Both the position numbers and the translations under genes were made by a program. The notes under the pieces were generated by a model. The model made no database searches, was not told the DNA's origin, and saw only the letters and a list, made by a program, of their open reading frames with translations. Below are positions 3,188 to 25,368 of a stretch of DNA of 64,000 nucleotides, piece by piece. This stretch comes from an uncultured Ignavibacteriaceae bacterium (lineage in GTDB: Bacteria > Bacteroidota > Ignavibacteria > UBA10030): contig CAYYOV010000002.1 of the NCBI GenBank assembly GCA_964473365.1, positions 97,576 to 161,575 of the forward strand, given 5' to 3'. The stretch's first letter is position 1. The number at the start of each line of letters is the position of its first letter.

Positions 3188-3498
3188 TGCGCTGAGCGAG
3201 TTTGCAGCGGAAGATGGTGAAGTTTCGAACAATACGAATCCCACCTTTGCGACATGACGCGCTCGTCAATCATGAGTAAGCATCCCCCTTCCTAACCTCG
3301 ACGAAACCTTGCGTACGTCGCGAATCGCCAACCCCGAACGAATCGATCGGATGGAGTTCAACAAGATGACATCCGATTGACTCTGCCAAGTCCTTCGGTC
3401 CGGTTGCCCGGATCGACCTGAGCGTCAGTCCATTGCGCGATCGTTCCCCAGATGATCGCTTCCACGAGCGTTTGAGTCCCAGCACAGCGGGAGGTCCT

Positions 3499-7821: not shown

Positions 7822-7985
7822 GGCAGGACCCTTCATCTCCGTGGAGGATGTCAACCCCACGCGTTTCCCCGCAGCGACCTTTGGAGGTTCGAATCCCTTC
7901 GGTCACGCGTGCTGTGGATGGGCGATGTGACCCGGTTACCTTTCCGACCAATCCGATTGACCGGCCAATAGTGTCCGACGCGATC

Positions 7986-8555
7986 ATGCCGATCAGGTCC
8001 ATCGTCCCTTCACGGCCTGCAAAGAACCTCGGAATTGCCCTTGTGTGTGTCCTGGTCCACCTGATGCCGCTTCGACCACAGGAGGCAGCCGAGCAGGTTC
8101 GACCCATCTTCTGGTTTCAGGTCGGAGGCGATCCCGGGATCTCGATGCCTGCCTTCAGCGGGGAAGCGGGTGCATACGTCTGCCCGGTCAGTGCATGTGT
8201 GGTCGGAATTCGTATCACCGGGACGGCGCATCCGGGGGATGACCTGCCCAAGGATCTGTCGACCAAAGATCTCATGGTCGGGTATCAGGCCCAAACGGGC
8301 ATGGGCGCGCTCACGGTGTCTGCTGGCGTCAGTGCCATTGCGTCCACAAGGTGGGAGGTCACGGGTGTCTTCCTGTCCCCAGGCTATACGGCGACGAAGG
8401 TTGAAGAAACAGGCGTCGGCGTGCCGCTGGAGCTTGCTCTTTCGCTCCGTCCATTTCGGTTCCTCGGCATCGGGATCAGGGCCTTCAAGGTGTTCAACCG
8501 CTTCCAGACCTATGAGGGCGTTCACGGTGTGGTGCAATTCGGCATCGTCCGCTGA
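7986..8555 (+). CDS. Hypothetical protein, possibly a small outer-membrane beta-barrel
   Basis: Track ORF is 7848..8555. Internal Met at 7986 gives a signal-peptide-like N-terminus (MPIRSIVPSRPAKNLGIALVCVLVHL). The C-terminal half has alternating hydrophobic strands (GVPLELALSLRPFRFLGIGIRAFKVF...GVVQFGIVR). No family recognised. The antisense ORF 8010..8537 looks like noise. Confidence 0.3.
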   Translation: MPIRSIVPSRPAKNLGIALVCVLVHLMPLRPQEAAEQVRPIFWFQVGGDPGISMPAFSGEAGAYVCPVSACVVGIRITGTAHPGDDLPKDLSTKDLMVGYQAQTGMGALTVSAGVSAIASTRWEVTGVFLSPGYTATKVEETGVGVPLELALSLRPFRFLGIGIRAFKVFNRFQTYEGVHGVVQFGIVR

Positions 8556-9027: not shown

Positions 9028-9056
9028 TTGACAGAATAGCCGAAAAGAAGTAAACT
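9028..9056 (+). promoter_or_regulatory. Candidate sigma70-type promoter (TTGACA-N17-TAAACT) for pilC-pilB
   Basis: Consensus -35 TTGACA at 9028..9033, a 17-nt spacer, then TAAACT at 9051..9056. It lies ~50 nt upstream of ATG 9110. Confidence 0.5.
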
Positions 9057-9109
9057 CTGTTACTCTGACATGTCTTGAGCAATCCTGCTCAAGTATTTGG
9101 TGAGGTTGT

Positions 9110-10480
9110 ATGCCCGAATTTCGTGTGGAAGGTCTGACTCCTTCCGGCAAGGCCATTTCCGGCGTGATCAACGCTGATAATAAGAAACTGGCCAAGAAAC
9201 GCGCCGAAGAGATGGCCAGGGAAAAGAAGTTCAAGATTACGGCCGTCCACGAGCGTGTGTCATTCCTCTATCGTGTCCAGAAGGGGAAGGACAAACCGAT
9301 CGATGGTGAGCAAAAGGCCTTTACGCCCGACGAGGTGCGCATTGCCCTCGAGAAAATGGGCTACAAGGTCCAGTATGTTCGCAAAAAGCTCTTCGGCAAC
9401 AAGCTCAAACCGGCCCCCCCTGTCGAAGTGATCTCCTTCGTCCGAATCAGCACCGACCTGATGCGACAGAAGCTGCCATTCAACGAGGTCATGCAGCTTC
9501 TGATCAACGACATCCCAAATCCGATCCTGCGCGATTGTCTCAAGGAAATTAATCTCGAACTGAAGCAGGGAAAGGACTCAGAAAAGGTCTTCCTCAAGCA
9601 CTCAGTCGTCCTCGGTAAGTTTACTGCGAACATGCTCGGCCTCGCCTCGAAGAGCGGCAACATGGTGGAGATCTATGAGAGCACGGCCAAGTTTCTCGAG
9701 CGCAACGCTCAGTTCAAGAAGTCCGTGCGACAAGCCCTGATCATGCCGTTGGTCACCTTGTTCGTTCTGTTCCTTGCGGTCATGTTCTATGTTGCCTATA
9801 TCTTCCCCGCAACGGCGGAGATGTTCGTGAAGTTCAAGATCGAGCTGCCGCCGATGACGAAGGCGACGCTTCAGTTCAGCAACTGGCTCATGGACAACGC
9901 CCTTGTCGTGAGCCTCGCGTTCATCATCCCCATGGTTGCCGCGGCCCGCTTCTTTGCGACGGAGAAGGGCCAGTTCATGCTCGACCAATATATGCTCAAG
10001 GTGCCGGTCGTCGGGGCGTTGTTCCACAAGACCGCGATCGAGATCTTTTGCCGCGTCTTCTATGCGCTGTACAGCGGTTCGGGCGAGAATATCGAGGTCA
10101 TCCGGATGGCGTCCGAAGCATGCGGCAATAAATACATGGACCAACGGATCAGAACGATCGCGATCCCGCTCATGCTGGAGAAAGGGAAGAGTCTCACCGA
10201 GGCATTCCAGGCCAGCGGTGTTTTCACGGAGACGGCCATCTCCCGTTTGAGTTCCGGCGCCGAGACCGGAACGGTCAAGAATACTGCGATCCAGCTGGCC
10301 GAATACTATGAGAAGGAAACCACGTATCGCCTGGCGAACGTGGTACAGCTGATCGAGTTGTCCGTGCAGATGGTCATCATGATCGTCCTGACGGCCCTGA
10401 CGCTCGTCTCGTCGGAGACGGCGACGGTAAAGCCGAAGGCGCCCGGCGGGTTCCTGTCATTGTTCGCCGGATGGTTCTGA
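9110..10480 (+). CDS. pilC: Type IV pilus / T2SS platform protein (GspF/PilC family)
   Basis: 456 aa with two T2SS-F-type repeats and three hydrophobic segments (LIMPLVTLFVLFLAVMFYVAYIF, ALVVSLAFIIPMVAAARFF, VQMVIMIVLTALTLV). Typical GspF strings are present (LGLASKSGNMVEIYESTAKFLE; LSSGAETGTVKNTAIQLAEYYE). Confidence 0.85.
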   Translation: MPEFRVEGLTPSGKAISGVINADNKKLAKKRAEEMAREKKFKITAVHERVSFLYRVQKGKDKPIDGEQKAFTPDEVRIALEKMGYKVQYVRKKLFGNKLKPAPPVEVISFVRISTDLMRQKLPFNEVMQLLINDIPNPILRDCLKEINLELKQGKDSEKVFLKHSVVLGKFTANMLGLASKSGNMVEIYESTAKFLERNAQFKKSVRQALIMPLVTLFVLFLAVMFYVAYIFPATAEMFVKFKIELPPMTKATLQFSNWLMDNALVVSLAFIIPMVAAARFFATEKGQFMLDQYMLKVPVVGALFHKTAIEIFCRVFYALYSGSGENIEVIRMASEACGNKYMDQRIRTIAIPLMLEKGKSLTEAFQASGVFTETAISRLSSGAETGTVKNTAIQLAEYYEKETTYRLANVVQLIELSVQMVIMIVLTALTLVSSETATVKPKAPGGFLSLFAGWF

Positions 10481-10512
10481 CAGCGCCCCCGCGGGCGCAC
10501 GGAGGATGAGGC

Positions 10513-12306
10513 ATGCCAGAGATCGACATTACTGATAAGATCGGCTATACACTCCTGAAGAAGGGCATCATCGATTTCGAGACCCTCGAGAAATCGTTGA
10601 AGCTGAAGGACTCCGAGGAGAACAAGAAGAACCGGAAGAACCTCGGCCAGATCCTCGTCTCGGAGTTCGGCGCCGACCACGACGCCGTGTTCCGCGAAGT
10701 GGCGAATCTCTACGCCTTCCGCGAGATCTTCCTGAACGACGAAAAGATCGACGAGGCACGTATCGCCTTCGTCAAGAAGTTCGTCGACGCCCTGTCCGAT
10801 CAGCAGCGCGAGATGATGACGGCCGCGAAGATGCTGCCGTTCAAGTGGGACGAGCGACAAACGGACAAGCTGATCATCGTTGCCGCAGACCCGACCGACC
10901 GGAACCTGCCGGTGGTCGCCCGATCGTTCAACGTCAAGAAATACGAGATCTGCTACGTCCGTCTGAAGGACCTGCAGAACCTTCTCGAGAAGGTCGCCCC
11001 GAAGCAGAACGAGTTCCTGAAGATGCTCGATTCGAGCGAGACGATCGAAGAAGGCTCGATGAGCAAGGACGACGTCGAGGTCGACGAAGACGCGCTCGAA
11101 GCCGAGATCAACAAGAGCGCCCTCGTCAACCTCTTCGAAGGTTGCATCGTGGAGGCGGTCCGTCGGGACGTGTCCGATATTCACATCGTCGCGGCCGAAG
11201 GGAACAAGACCAACTTCATGTTCCGCGTCGACGGCAACCTGCAGGTCTGGCATTGCCAGGAGAATACGCTCCCCGAGGCCGTCATGGCGGTCATTAAGGA
11301 CCGCACGAAGAACGTGGACCGGTTCGAGCGTGAGATGTCGCAGGACGGATTCATCCAACGCGTCATCGACGGCCACCAGCTCCGGTTCCGCGTGTCGATC
11401 ATGCCGATCGTCACGACGGAATTCAAGCACAAATTCGAGAGCGTCGTCATCCGCGTTCTGGACGACCGGAAGGTCATCACGGACCTGAACAAGCTCGGGT
11501 TGCAGGGGCCCGCGAAGAACTTCTTCTACAAGGCCATTGGCAAGCCGCAAGGGATCGTCATCCTGACGGGCCCGACAGGGTCCGGCAAGTCGACCACGCT
11601 GATCGCCGCACTCTACCAGGTGATCGACCCGACCGTCAACGTTCTGACGATCGAAGAGCCCGTCGAGTACATCATCAAGGGCGCGCGACAGCTCAAGATC
11701 GGCCCGAAGATGGGGTTCGAACAGGCCATCCGCGGTATTCTGCGTCACGACCCCGACATCGTGCTCGTCGGTGAAATGCGCGATAAGGTCACGGCTGAGA
11801 CGGCCATCAAACTGGCCAACACAGGTCACTTGGTCTTCTCCACCCTGCACACGAACGATGCTCCCAGCGCGGTGGCACGTCTGTACAAGATGGGCATCGA
11901 GCCGTTCCTGATCGCATACGCCATCAACATCATCGTCGCCCAGCGGCTCATCCGTACGCTCTGCAAGGTCTGTAAGTCTCCCATCGATGAGGATGAGAAG
12001 GGAGACCTGCTGAAGTTCGGTTTCACGGAAGAGGACCTGGCCCAGCACACCTTCTACAAACCGGTCGGTTGCGACAAGTGTAACGGCGGATGGAAGGGGC
12101 GCGCGGCCATCCACGAGGCGCTCTTCTTCAGCAAGGCAATCAAGGACATCGTCCTGAATGCCGGCGACAAGGTCGATGAGAATGCCATCCGCGATCAAGC
12201 GTCGAAGGACGGCATGTGGACGCTCCGACGTTCTGGTATGGAGCGGATGAAGGAGGGGATGACAGCCCTTGAAGAGGTCATCGCGTCGACGGTCGAGGAC
12301 GAGTGA
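10513..12306 (+). CDS. pilB: Type IV pilus assembly ATPase (GspE/PilB family)
   Basis: 597 aa. N-terminal GSPII_E_N-like region (LGQILVSEFGADHDAVFREVANLYAF). Walker A GPTGSGKSTT, Asp box LTIEEPVEY, Walker B DPDIVLVGEMRD, His box GHLVFSTLHTNDA. Tetracysteine motif CKVCKSP...CDKCNGGWKGR. Confidence 0.92.
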   Translation: MPEIDITDKIGYTLLKKGIIDFETLEKSLKLKDSEENKKNRKNLGQILVSEFGADHDAVFREVANLYAFREIFLNDEKIDEARIAFVKKFVDALSDQQREMMTAAKMLPFKWDERQTDKLIIVAADPTDRNLPVVARSFNVKKYEICYVRLKDLQNLLEKVAPKQNEFLKMLDSSETIEEGSMSKDDVEVDEDALEAEINKSALVNLFEGCIVEAVRRDVSDIHIVAAEGNKTNFMFRVDGNLQVWHCQENTLPEAVMAVIKDRTKNVDRFEREMSQDGFIQRVIDGHQLRFRVSIMPIVTTEFKHKFESVVIRVLDDRKVITDLNKLGLQGPAKNFFYKAIGKPQGIVILTGPTGSGKSTTLIAALYQVIDPTVNVLTIEEPVEYIIKGARQLKIGPKMGFEQAIRGILRHDPDIVLVGEMRDKVTAETAIKLANTGHLVFSTLHTNDAPSAVARLYKMGIEPFLIAYAINIIVAQRLIRTLCKVCKSPIDEDEKGDLLKFGFTEEDLAQHTFYKPVGCDKCNGGWKGRAAIHEALFFSKAIKDIVLNAGDKVDENAIRDQASKDGMWTLRRSGMERMKEGMTALEEVIASTVEDE

Positions 12307-12335
12307 CCGTATCACAGCAGGGCAGCACGTACAAC

Positions 12336-12365
12336 GCAACGGGCGCTTCTTGGAGCGCCCGTTGC
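12336..12365. terminator. Bidirectional stem-loop between convergent pilB and the pilin-like operon
   Basis: Perfect 12-bp stem GCAACGGGCGCT (12336..12347) / AGCGCCCGTTGC (12354..12365) with a 6-nt loop. The flanking T/A tracts are weak. Confidence 0.55.
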
Positions 12366-12402
12366 TGTTCACTGACCTTCGTGCCCCAGTTACGCCGGGG
12401 CG

Positions 12403-13428
12403 CTATTCATACCATTCCACCACGCTGTAATACAACAACCTTCCGATCCGCTTTGCCTGGTCGAGAGCCTCGCTGCTATATTTCACCTTTCCTCCCGAAC
12501 CAGTACCCTTCAAGGTTAGGTGGACTTCCTCGCCCGCGACCATCACGCCGCCGACGATTTGTGGGTTTCCGAGAGCTTCGAAACTAATCACATTCTCCTC
12601 CCCGTACGCCATCACAAGGCCATACCATGTGAAGGAACCCGAGAACTTCACGTTCCCGTTGATGGCCAGGATCCCCCAGCCAACGACGCTGCCGGTGAAC
12701 CGGATTGAAAAGTTTGTGTCGGCCGTGCCGACGTTGCATACCACGATCACGGGGTTTGCGGCGCTTCCAAAGACCCAATCGCCCGCCACGTTGCCCGGTG
12801 TGTTGAATGTGTAGTGAGCACTCTGTTCATACTCCGGGATGAATGATGCGGGGCTGAGGGCGGTGGGGTCGGTCCCTACTTTGATCGAACCGGTGAGGTA
12901 CGGGGCCACTGAGGCATCGTTGATGATCTCGGCTGAATCTGATGGATTGCTTACTGTGATGGCCGGAAGATCCCCGCTGCCAGTCAATGCCGACCCGTCC
13001 GCGGTCCAGTTGCGGCCGTCCACGGAAGCCTTTCCGCTGATGTCCATTTCGGCGTCGTTGCTGATCATGCCGATGGCCGACTTCGACGTCGGGAACGGTT
13101 TCGGCGTAAAGAGCAGCTTGACACGCATGACGTAGGTCGATTCTGCGTAGACACCGCGTGAGACGATCCGGAGTGTATCCCCGACGGACGTTGCGGTGAC
13201 GGCGTAGGAGCCGCCTTGAAAGCTTGCGGTCGTCGGGGGCGTGATACCCCGGTCAATATACCTGAGGTGTCGGTTGACGGCGAGTCGGGCCATGTTCCGC
13301 GCAAACGAGTACTTGTAGTAGCCGACCTGGGCGCCGGTGAGCGTTTCGGCCGACTCTCGAAGGCTGCCGCCGATGAACCCGAAGGCGACCGCCATCCCCA
13401 TCACCAGAAACATCGCAGCTCGTCCCAT
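12403..13428 (-). CDS. PilX-N-like pilus-associated protein (putative minor pilin / tip protein)
   Basis: 341 aa. The N-terminus MGRAAMFLVMGMAVAFGFIGGSL resembles the PilX_N hydrophobic helix. The C-terminal part has a Gly-rich beta pattern (GWGILAINGNVKFSGSFTWYGLVMAYGEENV...IVGGVMVAG) seen in PilX-like proteins. No Gly-1/Glu+5 prepilin motif. Confidence 0.45.
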   Translation of the reverse strand: MGRAAMFLVMGMAVAFGFIGGSLRESAETLTGAQVGYYKYSFARNMARLAVNRHLRYIDRGITPPTTASFQGGSYAVTATSVGDTLRIVSRGVYAESTYVMRVKLLFTPKPFPTSKSAIGMISNDAEMDISGKASVDGRNWTADGSALTGSGDLPAITVSNPSDSAEIINDASVAPYLTGSIKVGTDPTALSPASFIPEYEQSAHYTFNTPGNVAGDWVFGSAANPVIVVCNVGTADTNFSIRFTGSVVGWGILAINGNVKFSGSFTWYGLVMAYGEENVISFEALGNPQIVGGVMVAGEEVHLTLKGTGSGGKVKYSSEALDQAKRIGRLLYYSVVEWYE

Positions 13429-13437
13429 GATTGGCCT

Positions 13438-14040
13438 CTACTTGGACAGATTGAGTTGATTGAGATTACGCGGGAAGATCAGCTTCTGCCATGTCACAAG
13501 CGAATACGTCGTATCACCCTGGGGCGTGAGGACCGGCTCAGGACTTGCTACCATGAAATAGACATTGATCCCGCGGATCTTAGCAAGTGTATCGACCTGG
13601 TTCGTCGGAACACCGATCCGAACGTTGTTTGAATCGAAGTACGAGATCCGAAAGTCGATCAAGCCGAAATTCTGTCGCAGGGCTGTTCCCGCCTGTATAC
13701 GGAACAGCGGAAAGTCGGTCGGGTTTGGCGTGTTCGCGGATTGGGCGATGGTGCCTGTCTGATACCGGTAGAGTGCCGTGTCCATATTGTTCGACACATC
13801 CGCCCGATAGTCGATGCGGCGCTCCGCTGCGTAAAAGATCCGCTGACCGCGTACGTGGTGGCCGATCTTCAGAAAATCGAATTCCACCTGGCGCGCGAGT
13901 TCAACGGCATTCCCCTGGGTGATGACCGTGAACGTGTTTTGATAGAGAGTGGCGTTGATGTTCGTCTGTACCCGGGCGACTGCCAGGACGAGGACACCAA
14001 AGATGATCGCGGAGGCGATATAATCCAGCATTGCCGACAT
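13438..14040 (-). CDS. Pilin-like protein with N-terminal hydrophobic helix (no prepilin leader)
   Basis: 200 aa. The N-terminus is MSAMLDYIASAIIFGVLVLAVARV. An in-frame TAG five codons upstream of the ATG excludes a longer leader. It is 9 nt from the next gene in the operon. No family recognised. Confidence 0.4.
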   Translation of the reverse strand: MSAMLDYIASAIIFGVLVLAVARVQTNINATLYQNTFTVITQGNAVELARQVEFDFLKIGHHVRGQRIFYAAERRIDYRADVSNNMDTALYRYQTGTIAQSANTPNPTDFPLFRIQAGTALRQNFGLIDFRISYFDSNNVRIGVPTNQVDTLAKIRGINVYFMVASPEPVLTPQGDTTYSLVTWQKLIFPRNLNQLNLSK

Positions 14041-14112
14041 GAAGAACCTCGCCTAGGGCCGTTCAGGATGGTCGATCGTGATCACGTAATCCGGGACTTT
14101 GCCAGACAGACA

Positions 14113-14664
14113 CTAATAGTACTTTCGGTAGACGGCGATATCATGCATCCGGTAGGGAATGACGTTCCCCGCGTCGTCCTTGATCATCGAAAAGTTCTGC
14201 ACGTTGACCATGATCCGCTTGTGCCACGTCTGGCTGGTTTGCACGGTCAAGTTGTCCTCGTGGACATACTCGATCGAATCCCGGACGATGAACCATCCGA
14301 GCCGTGGATTCCACACCCAACGGACGTATCCGTGATAGTCGTCGACGTCGTCAAATCGCCATTGGGAACGGAAGACTCCTGTTCGGGATGAATCGGGTGG
14401 AGTGATCGTCTCGCCACCGTCTGGCCCGAACGAGCCGCGGGATGTCATCCCAGCATTCGTGAATACGCGTCGATTGTTTGTCGTGTTTTCGTCGAAGCTC
14501 TTCGTGAGCACTTCGTCGAGCATTGACTGAGCGTACGACAAGGCGTTCAGGTTCGCCTCCATTTCAAGGCCCATGTTCGAGGTCTGAATGATCGTGGCGT
14601 TGACCGCTAGCGTCAGTGTCGAGAGGAGCGTGAACGCGCCGATCGTGAGCATCGCTTGTCCCAT
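14113..14664 (-). CDS. Pilin-like protein with N-terminal hydrophobic helix (no prepilin leader)
   Basis: 183 aa. The N-terminus is MGQAMLTIGAFTLLSTLTLAV, and GGAG lies ~12 nt upstream of the ATG. It is the first gene of the three-gene minus-strand operon. No family recognised. Confidence 0.4.
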   Translation of the reverse strand: MGQAMLTIGAFTLLSTLTLAVNATIIQTSNMGLEMEANLNALSYAQSMLDEVLTKSFDENTTNNRRVFTNAGMTSRGSFGPDGGETITPPDSSRTGVFRSQWRFDDVDDYHGYVRWVWNPRLGWFIVRDSIEYVHEDNLTVQTSQTWHKRIMVNVQNFSMIKDDAGNVIPYRMHDIAVYRKYY

Positions 14665-14970
14665 GGTGAACGTACTCCTGCTGGAATACCCATTCGTTGA
14701 ATGACGGGGTTGCTACCTCCGACCCAGAACACGTTAGCGGTTCCGGGTCCCCGGCCCTATGTGCCATATCACAGTTTCGTACGCGGCTATGACCGATCTT
14801 CGCAAGCCGTGAGACGACCCACCGGGCCACAACGGGTGGCGTGAGGCACAACTCTTTGTTGACTCCGGCCGGAGCGAAGGAGGTTTTCGACCTTGGCCTG
14901 AAATCCCGTTGACCGGTTATCTATTGATGCAACAATCCGTCCACAAACGCAAAAGGCAAATCAGCCGAAT

Positions 14971-14984
14971 TTCGAAGCTTCGAA
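14971..14984. promoter_or_regulatory. Perfect 14-bp palindrome TTCGAAGCTTCGAA in the divergent pil control region (candidate operator)
   Basis: The sequence equals its own reverse complement. It sits in the 584-bp non-coding gap between the minus-strand pilin-like operon and pilT, ~175 nt upstream of the pilT candidate promoter. Confidence 0.35.
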
Positions 14985-15158
14985 TGGTGAAGCCTGTATC
15001 GATTTGGTCCTGGGTGCTCAATTATGGGTAATAATGACACACCAGACCAAACGCCCCCACTGGCTGGCGCCAAGAATGTACGAAAACCTGCGGCCGAAAC
15101 ACAATATGATGTTGTAGCAGAAGATGGTGGAAAGAGCGCAACAAAGACTTTAAGCAAG

Positions 15159-15187
15159 TTGCAATTTACTGTGGCCTTCCGTATACT
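15159..15187 (+). promoter_or_regulatory. Candidate sigma70-type promoter (TTGCAA-N17-TATACT) for pilT and downstream genes
   Basis: TTGCAA at 15159..15164, a 17-nt spacer, then TATACT at 15182..15187. It lies ~60 nt upstream of ATG 15249. Confidence 0.5.
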
Positions 15188-15248
15188 CTACCGACTTAGT
15201 GGAGAAGAGACGGCTCGTACGAACAATACCTAAGACTCCAGAGTCCGC

Positions 15249-16556
15249 ATGCCCCCAACTTCGCCACCGCCAGCGCCAATGTCCAGACCGGGCAATGCTG
15301 CTGCTGCCGAGTTGTCTCCCGTTATTCTTGAAGGCCACAAGGTCCTGAAGGAAGTGGCGGCCACGTTGCCGCAGACCGTCACTGGCCTTGAGCGTCAGAT
15401 GATGATTGGCGATACCTTGTCGCGCGTCGATGAGACGTCGAAGATGAAGCTTCTGACGCTGATGAACCATCTTCTGTCAAAGATGTTCACGATCAATGCG
15501 TCAGACATCGACATGGGAGGCTATGGGTCCCAAGGATTTATTTGGTACCGGATCTATGGGTCAAAGAAGCCTGATCCGACGCTCGGGAAATACAGTCCCG
15601 ACGAGATGAATGTTCTCGTCCAGAGCGTTATTGGAGACCGTCAGCGCACGTTCCTCTACGAGAATCGGAACCTCGACTTCTCTCATATGCTGTACCTCGA
15701 GGGGGGTGAGTTCCGACGGTTCCGAGCCGACGCCTACTTCGACCTGGATCAGCTTGCGCTGAACATGAGGGCCATCAACAATACTGTCCGGCCCTACAAA
15801 TTGCTCGAGCTCCATCCGAGCGTGACGAAGATGGTCAGTCTGGCGCAGACGAAGGAAGGGCTCTGTCTTGTCACGGGCATCACAGGCTCCGGCAAGAGCT
15901 CGACGCTGGACGCCATCATCGATGCGAACAACCATTCCGTCGACGGCCACATCGTCATCATTGCGTCGCCGATCGAGTACGTGCACCGCTCCGATCGATG
16001 CATCATTCGTCACCGGGAGGTCGGGCGAGACGTCTTGTCGTTCAAGGAAGGGGCCATTCAGGCCCTGCGGCAGGATCCTGACATCATCATGCTCGGCGAA
16101 TTGCGCGATCCTGAGACAATCATGACGGCGCTCGAGATCACGGACTCGGGCCATAAGGTCTTCTCGACGCTTCACACCGCCTCGGCCGTGGAAAGTATCG
16201 ACCGGATCATCGGTGAAATTCCCCCCATCGAGCAGGAGCGCGTCCGGAATCGCCTGGGCGAAACGTTGCGGGCCGTGATCTCCCAAAAGCTCGTTCCCAG
16301 CCTCGACGGCAAGCGCGTCCTGGCGAAGGAGATCATGATCGCCACGCCGTCGGTCAGGGCCGCGATCAAGAACAACAACACGACCGAGATCTATCAGATG
16401 ATCTCTGAAGGTCTCGAGCAGGGGATGAATACGATGGAGCAGGATCTGAAACGCCTCTATCTGGCGAAGAAGATCTCGCTCGAGAACGCGATCAACTACG
16501 CCAACAACAAGCGTCGTCTACAGCAGTTGCTGCAGATCACTCCGTCGGACAACTAG
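15249..16556 (+). CDS. pilT: Twitching-motility (retraction) ATPase, PilT/PilU family, with N-terminal extension
   Basis: 435 aa. Walker A GITGSGKSST, Asp box IIASPIEYVH, Walker B DPDIIMLGELRD, His box GHKVFSTLHTASA, and a degenerate AIRNLIRE-type helix (SVRAAIKNNNTTEIYQMI). About 70-80 extra N-terminal residues begin with a Pro/Ala-rich stretch (MPPTSPPPAPMSRPGNAAAAE). Confidence 0.85.
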   Translation: MPPTSPPPAPMSRPGNAAAAELSPVILEGHKVLKEVAATLPQTVTGLERQMMIGDTLSRVDETSKMKLLTLMNHLLSKMFTINASDIDMGGYGSQGFIWYRIYGSKKPDPTLGKYSPDEMNVLVQSVIGDRQRTFLYENRNLDFSHMLYLEGGEFRRFRADAYFDLDQLALNMRAINNTVRPYKLLELHPSVTKMVSLAQTKEGLCLVTGITGSGKSSTLDAIIDANNHSVDGHIVIIASPIEYVHRSDRCIIRHREVGRDVLSFKEGAIQALRQDPDIIMLGELRDPETIMTALEITDSGHKVFSTLHTASAVESIDRIIGEIPPIEQERVRNRLGETLRAVISQKLVPSLDGKRVLAKEIMIATPSVRAAIKNNNTTEIYQMISEGLEQGMNTMEQDLKRLYLAKKISLENAINYANNKRRLQQLLQITPSDN

Positions 16557-16598
16557 CTCCGCGGACGAACCACCCGGCCGCAGTCAGACGGTGGCCGG

Positions 16599-18290
16599 AT
16601 GCCGCACATCGTTACCCCGCCGCTGACAGGCAGGCGGGTTGCTCCAGCGATCCACCACGTCGGAGACACCGGACCCCGTATGACTATCCAAAAAGGTGAT
16701 GGAAAGACCGCCGTCTCGCTGTTCGTCGACGGTCTGTCGCTGAAGTTCATTCAGCTCTCCTTGAAGGGTGGGAAGGTCGTTCTGCGCGATTTCAAGACCG
16801 TCGCGCTCGTGAAGAAGTTCGAGGAGAAGGAGCTCGCCGCCGAGAACGAGGAGTCGGGGGGGTTCGGCGAGACTCCCGCGCCTGGCGACGCCTTTGGAGG
16901 CGGCGCGGCAACACTCGATGGGGGACAAGAAGAGGAGGCGAACTCCAATTCTACTGTCCTCTTGGGTCTGCTATCCGATCTTGGGGCGAGATTTTCGCTC
17001 AACTATGCGCTCTCCGAGCCTGCAGTCACCTACCAGGAATTCGAATCGGACTTTGGCCTGAAGGGGACGGCGCTCCGCAAGCGGATCATCGAAGAACTGG
17101 CAACGTCTCGTGCCACACCGCCGGTGATGGACTCATTCGCGGTGATCCCACACGCCAACGGCGGGATCCTGACGGTGATCCGCGAGGACGGGCTGAACCT
17201 GTACGACCTGCTGACCGAGATCAAGAGTTTCCTCGGCAACCGGGCACCGAACCTGGAGTACATCGACAGCGCTGACGTGGCCCTCATTGAGATGATCCGG
17301 ACGGGCTACGAGGTCCAGGACGAAGAGGTGACGGTCGTTGTGTACGTCGGCCACGATTTCAGCCGCATCATCTTCATGCAGGGCAAGGAATATCTCCACT
17401 TCGCCCCGATCATCAGCGAAGGGCACGAATCGCCGAATCTGGAGAACACGCTCTACTCGCGCATCCTGCTCGAACAGGACAATATCGCCCTCGCCCGGAT
17501 GGACCGCATTATCCTGGCGGGTGAGGCGCACAAGGTGAACCTGCTCGAATCTTTGGCTCCGCAATTCTCCTCCGCACAGGTCGAGTACGCGCATATCCCC
17601 GACGTCGACCTGACACCGTTCGACGGATCGGTGGGCGAGGCGCTGTCGGAATATGCCATTCCGATCATGAATGCCTGGAAGGCGCTGGAGCCCAAGCGGA
17701 AGACCTTCTATTCTACGAACCTGATCCCGGGCGCGATCATCGAGGCCCAGAAGGTCTTCAAGCTGGCCTGGCACGGCTGGGTTACGGCGCTGGGCATCAT
17801 CGCGGCGATCGTTTTCTTTTACAATGCGATCCTCGAGCAGAGCGTCGATATTCGCCGGGCGAAAGAAGAACTCGCGCAGAAGCAGCTTCGCCTGGCCGAC
17901 CTCGACCTGTTCAGGTCCCGAAAGGACGTGCTCCAAGGCGATATCAACCGGTACATCAACGCGACGACGACGTACGACTCGATCGCGCCAGGCGGTGACC
18001 GCTGGAGCCGGATCCTCCACTATGTCGCAACGAGCGTCGAGGATCTGAACTCCATGTGGATCTACAATATGCGGCCCGATCCACAGAACAAATCGATCAT
18101 CATCCTCTCCGGTCGCTCGATCTACCGAACGCGGATTCCGCGCATCGCCAGCATCTTCGAGAAGGCCACACTGCGCGAGGTGCGGACGACAACGGTCCGG
18201 AACAAGATCGTGTATGAATTCGACATCGTCATCGAGCGGGTCGACAAACATGATATTCCCGAGCGGCCGTACGACGCCGCCCGGCGATAA
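16599..18290 (+). CDS. Apparent PilM-PilN fusion (actin-like cytoplasmic domain + TM helix + periplasmic coiled-coil domain)
   Basis: 563 aa. PilM-like strings: VSLFVDGLSLKFIQL, VVVYVGHDFSRIIFMQG, RIILAGEAHKVNLLESL. A single TM helix follows (WVTALGIIAAIVFFYNAIL, ~17769..17835), then a coiled-coil/PilN-like tail. An alternative start at ATG 16680 would give a more typical PilM N-terminus. Confidence 0.6.
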   Translation: MPHIVTPPLTGRRVAPAIHHVGDTGPRMTIQKGDGKTAVSLFVDGLSLKFIQLSLKGGKVVLRDFKTVALVKKFEEKELAAENEESGGFGETPAPGDAFGGGAATLDGGQEEEANSNSTVLLGLLSDLGARFSLNYALSEPAVTYQEFESDFGLKGTALRKRIIEELATSRATPPVMDSFAVIPHANGGILTVIREDGLNLYDLLTEIKSFLGNRAPNLEYIDSADVALIEMIRTGYEVQDEEVTVVVYVGHDFSRIIFMQGKEYLHFAPIISEGHESPNLENTLYSRILLEQDNIALARMDRIILAGEAHKVNLLESLAPQFSSAQVEYAHIPDVDLTPFDGSVGEALSEYAIPIMNAWKALEPKRKTFYSTNLIPGAIIEAQKVFKLAWHGWVTALGIIAAIVFFYNAILEQSVDIRRAKEELAQKQLRLADLDLFRSRKDVLQGDINRYINATTTYDSIAPGGDRWSRILHYVATSVEDLNSMWIYNMRPDPQNKSIIILSGRSIYRTRIPRIASIFEKATLREVRTTTVRNKIVYEFDIVIERVDKHDIPERPYDAARR

Positions 18291-18307
18291 CCAACTGCGG
18301 AGGCCTC

Positions 18308-19204
18308 GTGACCTATAAGATCCGCAATACGATCGCACTTGCCGTGGTCCTGCTGCTCTTCAGCGGTGGCGGTGCTTTCTGGTACTACTACTGGCAGCCG
18401 CGCGAGCTGAAAGCGCTCGTCAAGCAGATCCAGGCGATCGACAAGGAGCTCGACAATCTTCCGATCCTGACGGAAGAGGTCCAGCGGCTGACGGTACAAT
18501 TCCAGGACGTGAAGCGCCGGTACGATTCCCGGAGCAAAGAGATCCCCGAGTTCGACGTCTCCTCACAAACTTACGGCTATATGAGCCGGGGCATCGACGT
18601 TGCCGGGTTCCTGAAGTTTGATATGAAGTTTCTCGGAACGCAGGAAAGCCCCGGTTACGGATTCAACGCCTACAGGCTCGAGCAAGGGGAGGCCCAGTTC
18701 GACAACCTGTACCGCTTCGTCTACTTCCTGGAGAACGGCCGGCGGCTCTACAAGATCTCGACGCTCGCGCTTGAGTACAAGGATGCGGTCGATTCTGAGA
18801 CGAAGGAAACGAAGAAATGGATCGCATTCGACATGGAGCTCCATGCGTACTACGTGCGGGGCATTCCGGAGCTCGGTTCGTCGCTTGCGGCCCGCAGTTT
18901 GACCGTGGTACCGGCGCCATTTGACCCGTTCGATCCGCTCATCGTGCCGACGATCGCGGCGGAGGCGCCAATGGGCGAACTGAACCCGCGCAACGTCGAG
19001 ATCAAGGCGGTCCTGCCGGGCAAAGCATTTGTGTTGTATGAGAACGAGCTTATCGTCCTGCAGCTCGGCGATCGCGTATGGCGCGGCGCCGTCAGCGCGA
19101 TCGACCCGCGGACCAGCTCGGTGGAATTCACGCTCAACGAAGGTGGCGTGATCACGAAGGTGTCCAAGCAGATCCAATTTGACCGTCGAAGGAGGCTCCG
19201 GTGA
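18308..19204 (+). CDS. Apparent PilO-PilP fusion
   Basis: 298 aa. An N-terminal TM helix (IALAVVLLLFSGGGAFWYYYW), a coiled coil and an alpha/beta region are PilO-like. The C-terminus has a PFDPFDP motif and a beta-domain string (VEIKAVLPGKAFVLYENELIVLQLGDRVWRGAVSAIDP) that is PilP-like. Its stop overlaps the secretin GTG start (GTGA). Confidence 0.5.
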   Translation: MTYKIRNTIALAVVLLLFSGGGAFWYYYWQPRELKALVKQIQAIDKELDNLPILTEEVQRLTVQFQDVKRRYDSRSKEIPEFDVSSQTYGYMSRGIDVAGFLKFDMKFLGTQESPGYGFNAYRLEQGEAQFDNLYRFVYFLENGRRLYKISTLALEYKDAVDSETKETKKWIAFDMELHAYYVRGIPELGSSLAARSLTVVPAPFDPFDPLIVPTIAAEAPMGELNPRNVEIKAVLPGKAFVLYENELIVLQLGDRVWRGAVSAIDPRTSSVEFTLNEGGVITKVSKQIQFDRRRRLR

Positions 19205-20514
19205 ACCTCAAACGTGGAATGACCCTGTTGCTCATCGCCGTGCTGATGTCGGTGTCGGCGTTGGCCCAAACCGAGTCCCAGCTGCGACGCGCAGCCCAAG
19301 GGAAATCGGGAGCGGCTCCCGACGAGATCGTCTCGTTCCGTGCGGATGTACCGTATTCGCAGGCGATCAAATCGCTCGGAGATCTCTGGAAGACAAAGGG
19401 CGGGAAGATCGTCATCGACCGGTCGGGCACCAAAGAAGGGGACAAATCGATCGGCGTGAATATCGAGGCGATGTACTGGAAGGACGCCTTCGAGCTCATC
19501 CTGCGCTCGAACAAGCTCTGGTACAACCAGTATGAAGAGCACGTCGAAGTGGTTCCGATGGAGGAGGCCGGCAGGTCGGCCCAGGTTGACACGAAGACAG
19601 TCGAGCAGGCCAAGACGGGAGGCGCTCCTGTGACGACCCCCACAGCGAGCCAGATGCCGATGAACGAACTTCCGATGAAGGTCGACTCGGCCGAGTACTA
19701 CTTCAAGGATCGAGAGATCACGATCTCCAGCGTGTTCTTCGAGGTAGACCGGACAAAGCTGGCTCAGACCGGCATCGGCTTTTCCATCTTCCGGGGCAAA
19801 GGTCTCAACCTCGGCGTCGAGTTCAGCGGAGCGGACCGGATCACGACACCGATCCTCAATGCGACGGTCAGTCCGCGCGACAAGCGGCTGGCGGTGGACG
19901 TCGATGCGGCCCTACGCGTCTTCGAAAGCGAGCAGCTCGGCGAAGTGATCGCTCGTCCCCAGATCACGGTACGGAACGGCACATCGTCGAAGCTTCAGAG
20001 TGGCCAGAATTTTTCGGTGCAGTTGCGCGATTTTTCGGGCAACGTCGTCAACCAGTTCTACGAGACGGGCACGATCCTGACGGTCACGCCCAAGGTCTGG
20101 AAATTCCAAGAGAAGGAATTCATCAGCCTTAACTACAAGATCGAACGCAGCACGCTCCTCCCGTCAGCGACCACCATCCTGATCAACAAGACGGAGGCGA
20201 GCGGGACTCTCATGCTGCTGGACGGGGAAGAGGCGTACGTCGGTGGCCTGTACTCGACCGACGAATCGGTTACGCGCGAAGGTGTGCCGGTGCTCAAGGA
20301 CCTGCCGTGGTGGGTGCTCGGTCTGCGTTACTTGTTCGGCTTCGATGCAACCAGCTACAAGAAGAAGGAGCTCGTCGTCCTCATGCGCGCGCAGATGGTG
20401 CCGCTGCTCGAGGACCGGCTCAAGGCGGCCCCGGTGCAGCAGGGGTTGGACAACGTCCTGAAGGACATGAACCAGGACCTCCAGAAGCGGACGACACAAA
20501 AGAAGGTCCAGTAG
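19201..20514 (+). CDS. pilQ: Secretin (PilQ/GspD family), short form
   Basis: 437 aa. Signal peptide MNLKRGMTLLLIAVLMSVSALAQ. Secretin core strings ARPQITVRNGTSSKLQSGQNF, GTILTVTPKV and VPVLKDLPWWVLGLRYLFG. Only short N-terminal domains precede the secretin core. Confidence 0.8.
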   Translation: MNLKRGMTLLLIAVLMSVSALAQTESQLRRAAQGKSGAAPDEIVSFRADVPYSQAIKSLGDLWKTKGGKIVIDRSGTKEGDKSIGVNIEAMYWKDAFELILRSNKLWYNQYEEHVEVVPMEEAGRSAQVDTKTVEQAKTGGAPVTTPTASQMPMNELPMKVDSAEYYFKDREITISSVFFEVDRTKLAQTGIGFSIFRGKGLNLGVEFSGADRITTPILNATVSPRDKRLAVDVDAALRVFESEQLGEVIARPQITVRNGTSSKLQSGQNFSVQLRDFSGNVVNQFYETGTILTVTPKVWKFQEKEFISLNYKIERSTLLPSATTILINKTEASGTLMLLDGEEAYVGGLYSTDESVTREGVPVLKDLPWWVLGLRYLFGFDATSYKKKELVVLMRAQMVPLLEDRLKAAPVQQGLDNVLKDMNQDLQKRTTQKKVQ

Positions 20515-20689: not shown

Positions 20690-23600
20690 ATGACGTACGG
20701 TCAAGCGATTACGCGCCTGCTTACGGCTTCGCTGTTGTTGGTGATGGCGTGCCAGAACCCGGAGGAAGAAGGCCCGGGCGGAGGGACCACGGTCTCGACG
20801 ATCCTCAGCGGAAGGGTCCTCAGAAGCGACAACGGCACGGCCGTCCCAGGGGCCTACGTGCGGGACATCTCGAATGCGAGCAAGGTCGACACGACCGACG
20901 CGAACGGGACGTTTGCGCTGAGCTACGACCTGGCCGCGGGCCAGTCGTACGCGACCACCATCTATGCCACACGCACGCCCGGTTTTGGCAACGATTCGGC
21001 GTCGGTGACGTTGCAGTCAGGGACCAATCAGTCCGTCGACCTCATCCTCGTGGCCGACAGCACGAGCCCTCCGACCAATCCCGGGCAAACGTCCGGCCAG
21101 CCGGCCAGCGTCGTGCTCGTGGGGACAGAGGCAACGACCATTTCTATCCGCGGGACCGGATATAACGAATCATCCCTCCTCACGTTCGAAGTACGCGACT
21201 CGCTCGGGAATGCGATCCTCGGCGCGAATGGACCAAACGTGAAATTCGCGATCGTGGGTGGGCCGAATGGAGGCGAATATGTCTATCCGACGGTGGCACA
21301 GGTGGTCGCGGGGACAGGTCGGATCTCCACGCGGCTGAATGCGGGCACCAAGCCCGGTGTCATCCAGATCCAGGCGAGCACGCGGAACGATTCCGTCCTC
21401 TCTGCCCCTGCGCGTGTGACGATCGCGAGTGGTCTCCCGTATGGACCCAATGCTTCTATCGGACGCAGCAAGGCAAACGTAGCAGGTGGGTTGTTCGACA
21501 ACGAACGCGTTCGTATCACGGTCTTCCTGGGTGACCGATACCAGAACCCGGTCCCGCCAGGTACAGCCGTTTACTTCACGACCACGGGCGGCATCATTCA
21601 GCCGACTGCGTTCACGGACCAAGATGGCCAGGCGAGCGTCGATCTGATCACGGCCAATCCACGGCCGGCAGGGGGCGTCGCCATCATCACGGCCCGAACC
21701 ATTGGTGATACGGCTGCCCGTAAAGCAGATAGCCTCATCCAATTGCAGACGCAGGTAGTGTTCTCGGGCGCGACTATCATCACGGCTCCGACGGCAGCGT
21801 TCGGCGTTCCTGACAGCGGTTCGTACAGCTTCGCGTATTCCGTGCTCGACGCCAACGGCAACCCGTTGGTCGCCGGGACGACCATCCTCGTCACGCTCGA
21901 CGGCCCGGGGGCCGCAGACCTGGAGGCGCAGGGCGATGTTGATGTGACGATGAAGGATTCTCCGAATCCGGCAGACGGGAACTTCAACGTGAAGATCGTC
22001 GACAAGACCCGAGGTGGGACCGGAGGGTTCTTCGCGGTCAATATTAAGGTCAAGGGTCAGAATGGCGAGGCCTTCCACACCTTCAATGGATTGGCCCTGA
22101 CGACCGGTGGCGGTGGTGGATCCGTTTCTTCAACGAGCACCCCTCGTAGCATCGCACTGAGCTCGATCAGTTCTCGTACGTTGTCGGTCAAAGGGACCGG
22201 TGCGGGTGAAACAGCGCGCCTGACGTTCATCGTTCGGGATTCGCTCGGCAATCCGGTCGGCAACCCGTTGGATCCCTCCGTGAAGTCGTTCGTAACTTTC
22301 TCGATCAATCCATCGAGCGGTCTGGGCGGAGCGTTCGTGTACCCGTCGGGCGATTCGACGGACGTCAATGGACAAGTTGGAGTGAACTTCAATTCAGGTA
22401 CGCAGGCCGGTGTCGTGCAGGTCGTGGCAAGCACCGTGACCGCCGCTGGAACGATTACGGCTTCACCGGTGCAAATCACGATCCAGGGTGGTCTGCCTGA
22501 TTCGAACAGGTTCGTCGTAACGCTGGACCAGACGAACATGCCGGGCCTCGTCAAGACGGGTACGCTGGGCCAGGTGGCCGTCCAAGCGGCCGACGAATTC
22601 GGCAATGCCGTGCAACCCGGTACGGCGATCTACTTCACGACCAACATCGGCCTCATCAAGGCGTCCTCGGTTACGAATGAATCGGGCGTCGCGACCGCCC
22701 CGCTGAGCGGAGGCGTCGTTGGTGCTTCGACCGGACAGGGGACGGTTACTGTTCAGACGCTTGGTAAGAGTGGAGAAACTGTCCAGAAACAGCTGCCGTT
22801 CTTGTTCACGGGCGCTCCGGTCATTTCAAATGTCCCTGCGAGCGGCTTCAGCATTCCGGACAGCGGATTCTACAGCTTCTCGTTCACCGTGGCCGATGCG
22901 AACGGCAATCCGCTTTCAAAGGGTGCGACGATCACCGTCACAAAGGACGGAGCCGGATCGTCCGACCTGTCGCTCACGGGCGACGTCAATCGTACGATGA
23001 TCGATACGCGCTCGGTCGCTGCGACGACGTTCAACGTGACGGCGACGGACAAGTCGAATGGCGGGCCATCGGGTCCGGTCACCTTCACGATCAGCGTCTC
23101 CGGCCCCAATGGTGAAGCTACCGCAAGCTTCACGGGCTCGCAGCTTGTCACCGGACAACCCGGTACGGGTGGCTCAGGTTCTGGATTCGCTTCGAGCATC
23201 GAATTCCTCGGTTCACAAGGCAATGTGCGCACGCTGTCTGTGCGAGGCACGGGAGCGAATGAGGCGGTCATCGTCCGCTTTGTAGTCAAGGATTCGCTCG
23301 GGAGCCCTGTCGACCTGAACCATCGTGCGACAGTAACGCTGAGCATCCAGGGAGGTCCGGGAGGAGGGGAGTTCCTCTCGCCGACGCCGACGTCACTCTT
23401 AACGGACGCCAGCGGTCAGGTCTATGCGACATTGAATTCTGGGACGAAAGCCGGCGTGTTGCAGTTGCTGGCAACAGCGATCGTGAACGGCCGGACCATC
23501 ACGTCGGCTCCGATCGCCTTCACGATCTACGGTGGTCTGCCCTATGCGGGCGGTATGACCGTCTGGACGGACGTTTCGAATGTCCCGGGTCTGGTCGTGA

Positions 23601-25306: not shown

Positions 25307-25332
25307 ACCTCGCACGCTCTTGCGTTGATCCA

Positions 25333-25368
25333 GACCCCGTTCTCGAGAAGAGGACGGGGTTTGGTGTT
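25333..25368 (+). terminator. Intrinsic terminator after the giant lipoprotein gene
   Basis: 7-bp stem ACCCCGT (25334..25340) / ACGGGGT (25354..25360) with a 13-nt loop, followed by TTGGTGTTT. Confidence 0.55.

Follow-up and report, generated by a model that had tools for sequence, protein, structure and literature searches.

Composition and conservation of the locus

We analyzed a type IV filament locus within a 64,000-nucleotide stretch of DNA from an uncultured Ignavibacteriaceae bacterium (GenBank assembly GCA_964473365.1, contig CAYYOV010000002.1, positions 97,576 to 161,575). This whole stretch is referred to here as the window, and coordinates without a prefix refer to it. Six open reading frames (ORFs) between positions 9110 and 20514 encode PilC, PilB, PilT, a PilM-PilN fusion, an apparent PilO-PilP fusion, and a 437-amino-acid (aa) secretin. 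All six were present in the ORF listing of the window at the coordinates given by the original prediction, which had been made from the sequence alone. The features of the region are as follows.

9028 to 9056, plus strand: sigma-70-like promoter match (TTGACA-17-TAAACT, 10/12 matches) upstream of pilC; weak evidence only
9110 to 10480, plus strand: PilC/GspF-type inner membrane platform, 456 aa (Pfam T2SSF, E = 3.6e-29, two stretches)
10513 to 12306, plus strand: PilB-type extension ATPase, 597 aa, with a tetracysteine cluster and a possible N-terminal MshEN-like cyclic di-GMP (c-di-GMP) motif (Pfam T2SSE, E = 1.7e-95)
12403 to 13428, minus strand: m341, 341 aa, invariant MGR and then a hydrophobic helix; candidate for a large minor pilin, resembling PilX/GspK in size and location (from conservation)
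13438 to 14040, minus strand: m200, 200 aa, starting MSAMLDYIASAIIFG, with an invariant Asp at residue 6 (5 without the initiator Met); candidate minor pilin (from alignment)
14113 to 14664, minus strand: m183, 183 aa, starting MGQAMLTIGAF, with a conserved Gly-Gln 2 to 4 residues after Met and an FDDVDDYHGY motif; candidate minor pilin (from alignment A4)
15249 to 16556, plus strand: PilT-type retraction ATPase, 435 aa, with ~70 extra N-terminal residues (TIGR01420)
16680 to 17699, plus strand: PilM-like actin-fold cytoplasmic domain (AlphaFold and Foldseek); the ORF as listed begins at 16599
17712 to 18290, plus strand: PilN part, with an NLIP motif (17718 to 17729), one transmembrane (TM) helix, a coiled coil, and a ferredoxin-like domain (profile and model)
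18308 to 18856, plus strand: PilO-like part, with a TM helix plus coiled coil (aa 3 to 74) and a beta-beta-alpha-beta-beta core (aa 103 to 183) (Foldseek on the model)
18917 to 18937, plus strand: conserved PFDPFDP motif (residues 204 to 210) in a Pro/Asp-rich linker, disordered in the model and of low confidence, that joins the PilO-like domain to the PilP-like one
18998 to 19204, plus strand: C-terminal six-strand beta domain (aa 231 to 288) resembling PilP and the homology region (HR) of GspC (Foldseek on the model)
19201 to 20514, plus strand: short secretin, 437 aa, with a signal peptide, an N0-like region (by eye), and a secretin core (Pfam Secretin)
20690 to 25306, plus strand: lipoprotein, 1,538 aa, with lipobox LLLVMA/C (cut before C), a CarboxypepD_reg-like domain, and repeated Ig-like (Invasin_D3) modules (Pfam)
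25330 to 25364, plus strand: strong intrinsic-terminator-like hairpin (15 pairs, 9 G-C, then a T-rich tail)
Related loci, upstream of pilC: MGQQQLL-family genes (L009:1583-1981, L053:2434-2838, L059:2474-2911, and ~15 other loci)

The platform protein and both ATPases were recognizable by sequence and correspond to those of the type IVa pilus (T4aP) machine. PilC contains two T2SSF repeats and three predicted TM segments, and it matched the NCBIfam PilC and GspF models at ~1e-36, below their equivalog cutoffs. The ATPase at 10513 to 12306 scored higher against TIGR02538 (PilB) than against GspE (418 versus 374 bits), without reaching the PilB equivalog cutoff of 675 bits, and its best PDB sequence matches were Geobacter and Myxococcus PilB (4e-85), ahead of GspE (2e-79). 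It combines a Walker A motif (residue 353) with the tetracysteine cluster that had been predicted for it, located here at CKVC-484 and CDKC-520. Its N terminus (residues 9 to 60; positions 10513 to 10700) gave two subthreshold matches, one to MshEN (19.3 bits; cutoff, 23.1) and one to the c-di-GMP motif NF053729 (E = 0.018), which suggests that extension may be under c-di-GMP control. The second ATPase, also correctly predicted, exceeded the curated cutoff of the PilT/PilU model TIGR01420 (325.8 versus 319.1 bits, residues 72 to 421). It carries a Walker A motif at residue 210, and its gene lies immediately upstream of pilMN in all related loci.

The secretin matched Pfam Secretin over residues 242 to 400 (E = 2.7e-24) and is of the PilQ type. 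Its best NCBIfam model was TIGR02515 (PilQ), with MshL scoring lower, and its best PDB sequence match was Pseudomonas aeruginosa PilQ (E = 3.4e-10). Neither an AMIN nor a Secretin_N domain was matched in Pfam. The description of this protein as a minimal secretin holds insofar as it is short; however, it is not unusually small, as it matches HofQ NCBIfam models of 412 to 419 positions and a 426-aa RcpA chain occurs among its PDB matches. The secretin start overlaps the pilOP stop in the GTGA noted previously (19201 to 19204). A homologue of the lipoprotein, which has about four Ig-like/Invasin_D3 repeat modules, is encoded directly 3' of the secretin in almost every related locus and also in Calditrichia and the distant locus L059. 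This protein may act as an adhesin, as a partner of the secretin, or as cargo. The interval between the secretin and lipoprotein genes showed no terminator-like site, and the terminator at 25330 was the only site to stand out in the promoter/terminator scan. The total count of promoter-like sites in the region equaled the shuffle expectation, and promoter and terminator counts overall were at chance level. Taken together, pilT-pilMN-pilOP-pilQ-lipoprotein is a probable single transcription unit, closed by the hairpin at 25330 to 25364.

Elsewhere, the window encodes housekeeping proteins (Clp-type chaperone, Omp85/POTRA protein of the BamA type, MutS, and citrate synthase), and the locus is thus chromosomal. 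A scan of one genome per species detected 52 related loci, all in metagenome-assembled genomes (MAGs) of the Ignavibacteria type. In essentially all 52, tblastn with the window proteins recovered the gene string pilC-pilB-(three small genes, in about half of the loci)-pilT-pilMN-pilOP-secretin-large lipoprotein, with identities of 84 to 98% for PilB and 53 to 90% for PilMN. The same string surrounds distant PilMN-family members from candidate division KSB1 and Calditrichia, and it is also kept in a locus only ~31% identical. Whether the arrangement was lineage typical or new had been left as a question; the order kept in 52 Ignavibacteria loci, KSB1, and Calditrichia identifies it as lineage typical. 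Nearly all proteins of these loci are hypothetical in public annotation.

Such conservation bears on the idea that the locus is a decaying remnant that has lost its pilins and peptidase and builds nothing. Neither a canonical pilin nor PilD is encoded in the window or related loci and the genome papers report no pili, as a remnant would predict, but all genes are intact. Moreover, gene order and sequence are kept over 52 species-level genomes and into other phyla, and there are 544 PilMN clusters. We consider decay scarcely credible.

The PilM-PilN and PilO-PilP fusions

Neither fusion ORF (16599 to 18290; 18308 to 19204, 298 aa) matched any Pfam or NCBIfam model even at an E value of 10, and the domain reading was therefore put to structure and profile tests. 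Homologues of the first ORF measure 530 to 537 aa and cover 93 to 95% of it; thus, the true start of PilMN is probably the ATG at 16680 rather than the listed 16599. All-against-all HMMER comparison assembled a family of 544 representative clusters, mostly with full-length matches, down to ~25% identity. An alignment of 92 of its sequences (A2) was the input to both AlphaFold and the profile search. The resulting model had a mean predicted local distance difference test (pLDDT) score of 89.7 and a predicted template modeling (pTM) score of 0.71. The top Foldseek matches of the PilM domain in the PDB were PilM of P. aeruginosa (5eou, E = 1.8e-13), Myxococcus xanthus (3jc8_Ma), and Thermus thermophilus (2ych), followed by FtsA, whereas the cytoplasmic domains of GspL, EpsL, and PulL appeared only at ranks ~40 to 49. 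Profile A2 in turn matched M. xanthus PilN (3jc8_Na) with an E value of 1.6e-11, aligning profile positions 349 to 497 with PilN residues 3 to 146, INLLP peptide included, and Thermus PilN with an E value of 0.0029. Pfam PilN was matched by 26/92 family members. The PilM fold match, the PilN profile match, and these Pfam matches confirm that 16599 to 18290 encodes a PilM-PilN fusion, as had been proposed.

For the second fusion, the alignment behind the structural model comprised close homologues only, and the mean pLDDT was 67.9, falling below 50 across residues 190 to 215. The top PDB matches of the PilO part were PilO structures (3jc8_Oa, 2rjz, and 5uvr; E values of 2e-3 to 6e-3, probability 1.0). 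The C-terminal domain resembled PilP 2y4y (TM-score 0.70; root mean square deviation, 2.1 Å over 72 columns), with 2ivw and 2lc4 also matched, and the GspC HR 3oss_C (TM-score 0.68); these PilP/GspC-HR matches had Foldseek probabilities of ~1.0 but E values of 0.05 to 0.2. PilO and PilP were the top system-specific structural matches of the 298-aa protein. Within the PFDPFDP motif, D206 and P207 are invariant in alignment A1, and P207 and F208 are invariant in alignment A7. Against PDB sequences, the family profiles from A1 and A7 gave nothing beyond a weak hit on the coiled coil of PilN (E = 0.0085). The earlier PilO-PilP reading thus stands at moderate confidence, on fold matches to both partners, with sequence profiles adding only the weak coiled-coil match. 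Overall, two fusions represent the PilM/N/O/P subcomplex of T4aP; the fold identifies PilM and, at moderate confidence, PilO and PilP, and a profile match identifies PilN.

Several further observations concern the PilMN family. Members of 700 to 1,000 aa (among proteins P0266 to P0390) were considered as PilMN-PilOP super-fusions; this was rejected, as the extra C termini examined look TPR rich. One family member matches Pfam SPOR, and one tail is AMIN-like by eye; these would be further envelope-binding modules fused at the PilN end. Another, diverged PilMN-PilOP pair (identities of 43% and 37%) occurs at L045:10000-12422, in the same MAG as L032. This pair, inspected for a canonical pilin or peptidase alongside it, has no adjoining ATPase, secretin, or pilin-like genes, and its neighbors are a sigma-54 histidine kinase/response regulator and ExbB/ExbD/TonB. 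Separately, the actin-like protein BT_3980 of Bacteroides thetaiotaomicron (PDB 3hrg) ranked 14th among Foldseek matches to the PilM domain (E = 4e-9). Given this match, Bacteroides may carry a related, unrecognized PilM-like component.

The layout had been described as not that of a textbook T4aP or type II secretion system (T2SS). The fusions are real, but their novelty is lower than this implied because the arrangement is lineage typical and has published precedent. PulL/GspL of the T2SS corresponds to a PilM-plus-PilN fusion (PMC10191384), and GspC's HR domain is a homologue of PilP (PMC3169554). PilO-PilP fusions have also been reported, for example, Pseudomonas putida Q88CU9, and Korotkov et al. 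(2011) took a 1:1 stoichiometry from them (PMC3169554). By description, Q88CU9 has the same two modules in the same order as 18308 to 19204. Its partners, however, are canonical and encoded in a textbook T4aP operon, whereas the fusion described here is invisible to hidden Markov models (HMMs) and co-occurs with a PilM-PilN fusion. As both kinds of fusion have precedent, the two are variants of known themes; what is previously undescribed is their combination with PilT in HMM-invisible form.

These T2SS parallels could be taken to indicate a T2SS-like device in which a short periplasmic pseudopilus pushes cargo, such as the downstream Ig-repeat lipoprotein, through the secretin. PilT speaks against it, scoring above its curated cutoff and being encoded directly upstream of pilMN in all loci; T2SSs are not known to have PilT. 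The single-chain PilM-PilN does have the PulL/GspL layout, but PilM structures match its PilM domain far better than GspL does (E values of 1e-13 versus 1e-5), and the extension ATPase likewise scores higher as PilB than as GspE. The PilP-like domain equals the GspC HR, although here it is part of a PilO/GspM-like chain instead of belonging to a separate TM protein that has a PDZ domain. In almost every locus, the secretin gene is indeed followed by one for a large surface-type lipoprotein; Bacteroidota lipoproteins, however, normally reach the surface by routes other than the T2SS. Finally, no PDZ domain, Pfam match to GspL, GspM, or GspC, or GspG-like pseudopilin was found, so that recognizable GspL/M/C, GspG-K pseudopilins, and the lack of a retraction ATPase, by which a T2SS is known, do not describe this locus. 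Phylogenies group the so-called T2SS of Bacteroidetes itself with T4aP, and its major pilin diverges strongly (Denise et al. 2019; PMC6668835). This would leave room for such a device, but overall we regard it as improbable.

Pilin-like proteins and the missing canonical prepilin and peptidase

Canonical prepilins were sought in six frames with the regular expression G-[FMLIVY]-[ST]-L-[IVL]-E combined with a hydrophobic stretch. As had been claimed, the window yielded no ORF with a canonical signal peptide of class III, and this search returned nothing credible in 774 kb of the 52 related loci plus the window. A T4aP major pilin with Gly at -1, Phe or Met at +1, and Glu at +5 is thus lacking from both the window and the 774 kb of related loci. 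The A24 peptidase motif (GxGD-K in a membrane ORF) was similarly absent from the window and from ~10 kb around ~55 related loci. Matches to the prepilin and A24 expressions were false positives inside large proteins, plus one uracil-DNA glycosylase. The only polytopic membrane ORFs of the window encode PilC, an 8-TM/TPR protein, a PepSY_TM protein, and a ferric-reductase-like protein, so that the reported absence of a prepilin peptidase also holds for the window. The 8-TM/TPR protein (26645 to 29017, minus strand; 790 aa) has approximately eight predicted TM segments and C-terminal TPR repeats, with no other family match.

The statement that the locus has no major pilin is accurate for canonical pilins in the window but incomplete, as it overlooks three pilin-like genes on the minus strand within the same interval. 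Located between pilB and pilT, m183, m200, and m341 each encode a hydrophobic helix of ~20 residues after a leader of 1 to 4 residues, and their orthologues accompany the machine in ~16 Ignavibacteria loci. Residues M1, G2, and R3 are invariant in the m341 family. The m200 family starts M-x-x-[ML]-[LFM]-D, with D6, S10, and F14 invariant (alignment A3), and has counterparts in the KSB1 locus (MSTLLD...) and in L059 (MGTLLD...). The m183 family begins MGQ.ML or M..GQ.ML in 17 loci, also with counterparts in KSB1 and L059; its Gly-Gln pair is kept whether it stands 1 or 3 residues from Met (MGQ versus MNSGQ or MSLGQ). These short N termini are real because, in nearly every case, in-frame stops 1 to 27 codons upstream of the orthologues leave no alternative start. 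None of the three window ORFs had a useful Pfam or NCBIfam match at E values up to 10, and their family profiles matched nothing among PDB sequences. The only family link for m341 is through a distant counterpart at L059:7468-8715, which matched Pfam DUF4900 at 27.7 bits (cutoff, 29.4). From these features, the three proteins are likely minor or priming subunits.

The cassette formed by these genes varies in orientation and occurrence. Here, and in most of the Ignavibacteria loci with the cassette, it occupies the minus strand; in L049, KSB1, and L059, it is on the plus (machinery) strand, and about half of the loci lack it between pilB and pilT. The differing strand and frequent absence suggest that it is an invertible or relocatable module.

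A candidate for the major subunit is encoded outside the window. Just upstream of pilC in ~18 related loci, including KSB1 and the distant L059, lies a gene for a protein of 127 to 145 aa that begins with invariant MGQQQLL. The first ~60 residues are near-invariant and the C terminus is variable; the genes have a strong GGAGG ribosome-binding site and are tandemly duplicated in L036 and L041. The family comprises 2,931 clusters at 90% identity, a few of which have been labeled "pseudopilin PulG" or "UPF0333" by the Joint Genome Institute (JGI). Using hhalign, residues 9 to 47 aligned with residues 6 to 44 of mature Geobacter PilA, in the alpha-1 helix (probability 62%, E = 7.5e-5), and one member gave a subthreshold match to the ComP_DUS pilin domain (E = 0.014). 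There is no Pfam or NCBIfam model of the family, and its only match among PDB sequences, Geopilin, was nonsignificant (E = 0.83). Profile-profile comparison showed no relationship to the m183 or m200 family. By tblastn, the window contains neither a copy nor a remnant of the gene, which is also absent from the examined flanks of the closest relatives. Because a conserved N terminus, variable C terminus, small size, strong ribosome-binding site, and adjacency to pilC form the pattern of a major pilin, the MGQQQLL family is likely to be the major pilin, to judge from these sequence hints. The pilin sequence pattern, in which a hydrophobic alpha-1 of ~20 residues runs into an amphipathic helix followed by a globular domain, fits this family and the three minus-strand proteins alike.

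Canonical prepilins and an A24 peptidase might instead be encoded elsewhere in the genome, in which case the small proteins would be short-leader substrates or unrelated membrane-anchored accessories. We view this as a real contender, somewhat short of even odds. Pilin and pilD genes are often unlinked from machinery genes, and mannose-sensitive hemagglutinin (MSH) loci, also without a peptidase, are thought to borrow one (PMC6668835). Within the Bacteroidota, an A24 peptidase, CHU_3197, is present in the T2SS-like cluster of Cytophaga hutchinsonii (PMC5553014). The Gly-Gln pair of m183 also resembles a Gly(-1) cleavage site since it is conserved whatever the leader length. In contrast, neither canonical motif occurs within ~10 kb of the ~55 loci, and all four families of small proteins are found together with the machine in lineages as far apart as phyla. 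In addition, the genome of Melioribacter roseus was reported to contain pilT, pilQ, pilB, and pilC, while neither pilA nor pilD was detected (Kadnikov et al. 2013; PMC3534657).

A Gly-Gln pair before a hydrophobic helix, as in these families, is also a feature of archaeal EppA-type substrates. Their class III signal peptides have Gln at +1 (DUF361/UPF0333). The leaders described here differ in being only "M" or "Mxx," with no basic residue and no Glu at +5; the hosts are bacterial, and no EppA or PilD homologue is found at the loci. Ignavibacteria, KSB1, and Calditrichia may build a retractile filament from nearly leaderless pilins, an MGQQQLL-type major subunit and three minor ones, without any A24 peptidase, or else a different peptidase could cut at Gly/Gln; we consider this less likely than not.

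Further genes of the window were also noted. The ORF at 7848 to 8555, upstream of pilC, was not counted in the system, having no family match and no homologue in any related locus. Farther upstream (3433 to 7821), a 1,462-aa protein with BcrAD_BadFG ATPase and DUF2229 domains, of the CoA-enzyme activase type, is apparently unrelated to the pilus genes. A membrane sensor with Mcp40H-20 sensor domains, HAMP, and an adenylate/guanylate cyclase domain is encoded at 53500 to 55662.

Proposed assembly and relation to known filament systems

In our assessment, with a probability of about 0.72, the locus encodes a chromosomal T4aP-like machine that is typical of Ignavibacteria and common to KSB1 and Calditrichia, with a filament probably made from noncanonical short-leader pilin-like proteins. 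In the assembly that we propose, PilC is the platform on which both ATPases act, PilB driving extension and PilT retraction. The four-protein alignment subcomplex is compressed into two polypeptides. Cytoplasmic PilM is covalently tethered to PilN through PilN's own PilM-binding NL(I/L)P peptide, kept in the fusion, and in the periplasm the PilN part would have the PilO part as its partner; fusion and pairing together would fix a 1:1:1:1 stoichiometry. By analogy with PilP-PilQ and GspC-GspD (PMC3169554), the PilP domain would contact the short secretin at its N0-like region. The filament itself would be built from pilin-like proteins with leaders of 1 to 4 residues and no Gly(-1)/Glu5, the MGQQQLL major subunit being encoded outside the window. 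Such a machine may serve in retractile adhesion, twitching, or uptake.

Several points weigh against this proposal. The PilO and PilP assignments come from a model with a mean pLDDT of 68 and Foldseek E values of 2e-3 to 0.2. The putative major subunit has no Glu5 and is not in the window, its match to PilA alpha-1 is modest and to a hydrophobic helix, and none of the four pilin-like families significantly matches any pilin in Pfam, NCBIfam, or PDB sequences. Prepilin peptidases are near-universal in type IV filament systems according to published surveys (PMC4471445), and one may therefore exist elsewhere in the genome. Lastly, no pili were reported in the genome papers of M. roseus or I. album, and a paper on subsurface Ignavibacteria is likewise silent on them.

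Compared with the T4aP machine of M. xanthus, P. aeruginosa, and T. thermophilus, the locus has the same functional modules, with PilB, PilT, PilC, and PilQ recognizable by sequence, PilM, PilO, and PilP by fold, and PilN by profile. The PilM-binding NL(I/L)P peptide is retained. The differences are that PilM plus PilN and PilO plus PilP are single chains, that the 437-aa secretin has no AMIN or Secretin_N match, that no Gly(-1)/Glu5 prepilin or PilD is encoded at or near the locus, and that an Ig-repeat lipoprotein belongs to the gene string. The C. hutchinsonii "T2SS" (CHU_3191 to CHU_3201) is another system from the Fibrobacteres-Chlorobi-Bacteroidetes (FCB) group, with platform proteins that are PilM/N/O/P-like by HHpred only and very divergent (pseudo)pilins (PMC5553014). 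That cluster has the A24 peptidase CHU_3197 and a recognizable GspG, with no PilT mentioned, whereas the locus studied here includes PilT but lacks the peptidase and GspG. A further parallel is the "incomplete" pilus set of M. roseus, from the same class of organisms and with the same genes present and missing (PMC3534657). That study did not identify the fusions PilMN and PilOP, nor the three small genes or the MGQQQ family.

At least six of the protein families described here (PilMN, PilOP, and the four pilin-like families) have no Pfam or NCBIfam model, and thousands of metagenomic proteins therefore remain "hypothetical." The fusions are evidence from nature for PilM:N:O:P at a 1:1:1:1 stoichiometry, and they offer handy single-chain structural targets. 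Type IV filament machines are defined by class III prepilins and a dedicated peptidase; in this widespread version from the FCB group, all motor and scaffold parts are present, with neither of these recognizable nearby. Should it be true that no A24 peptidase is involved, these bacteria would possess a pathway that does without a processing step held to be universal. If the subunits are indeed the short-leader proteins, this would explain why surveys score these organisms as lacking complete pili, and it would change the definition of a pilin.

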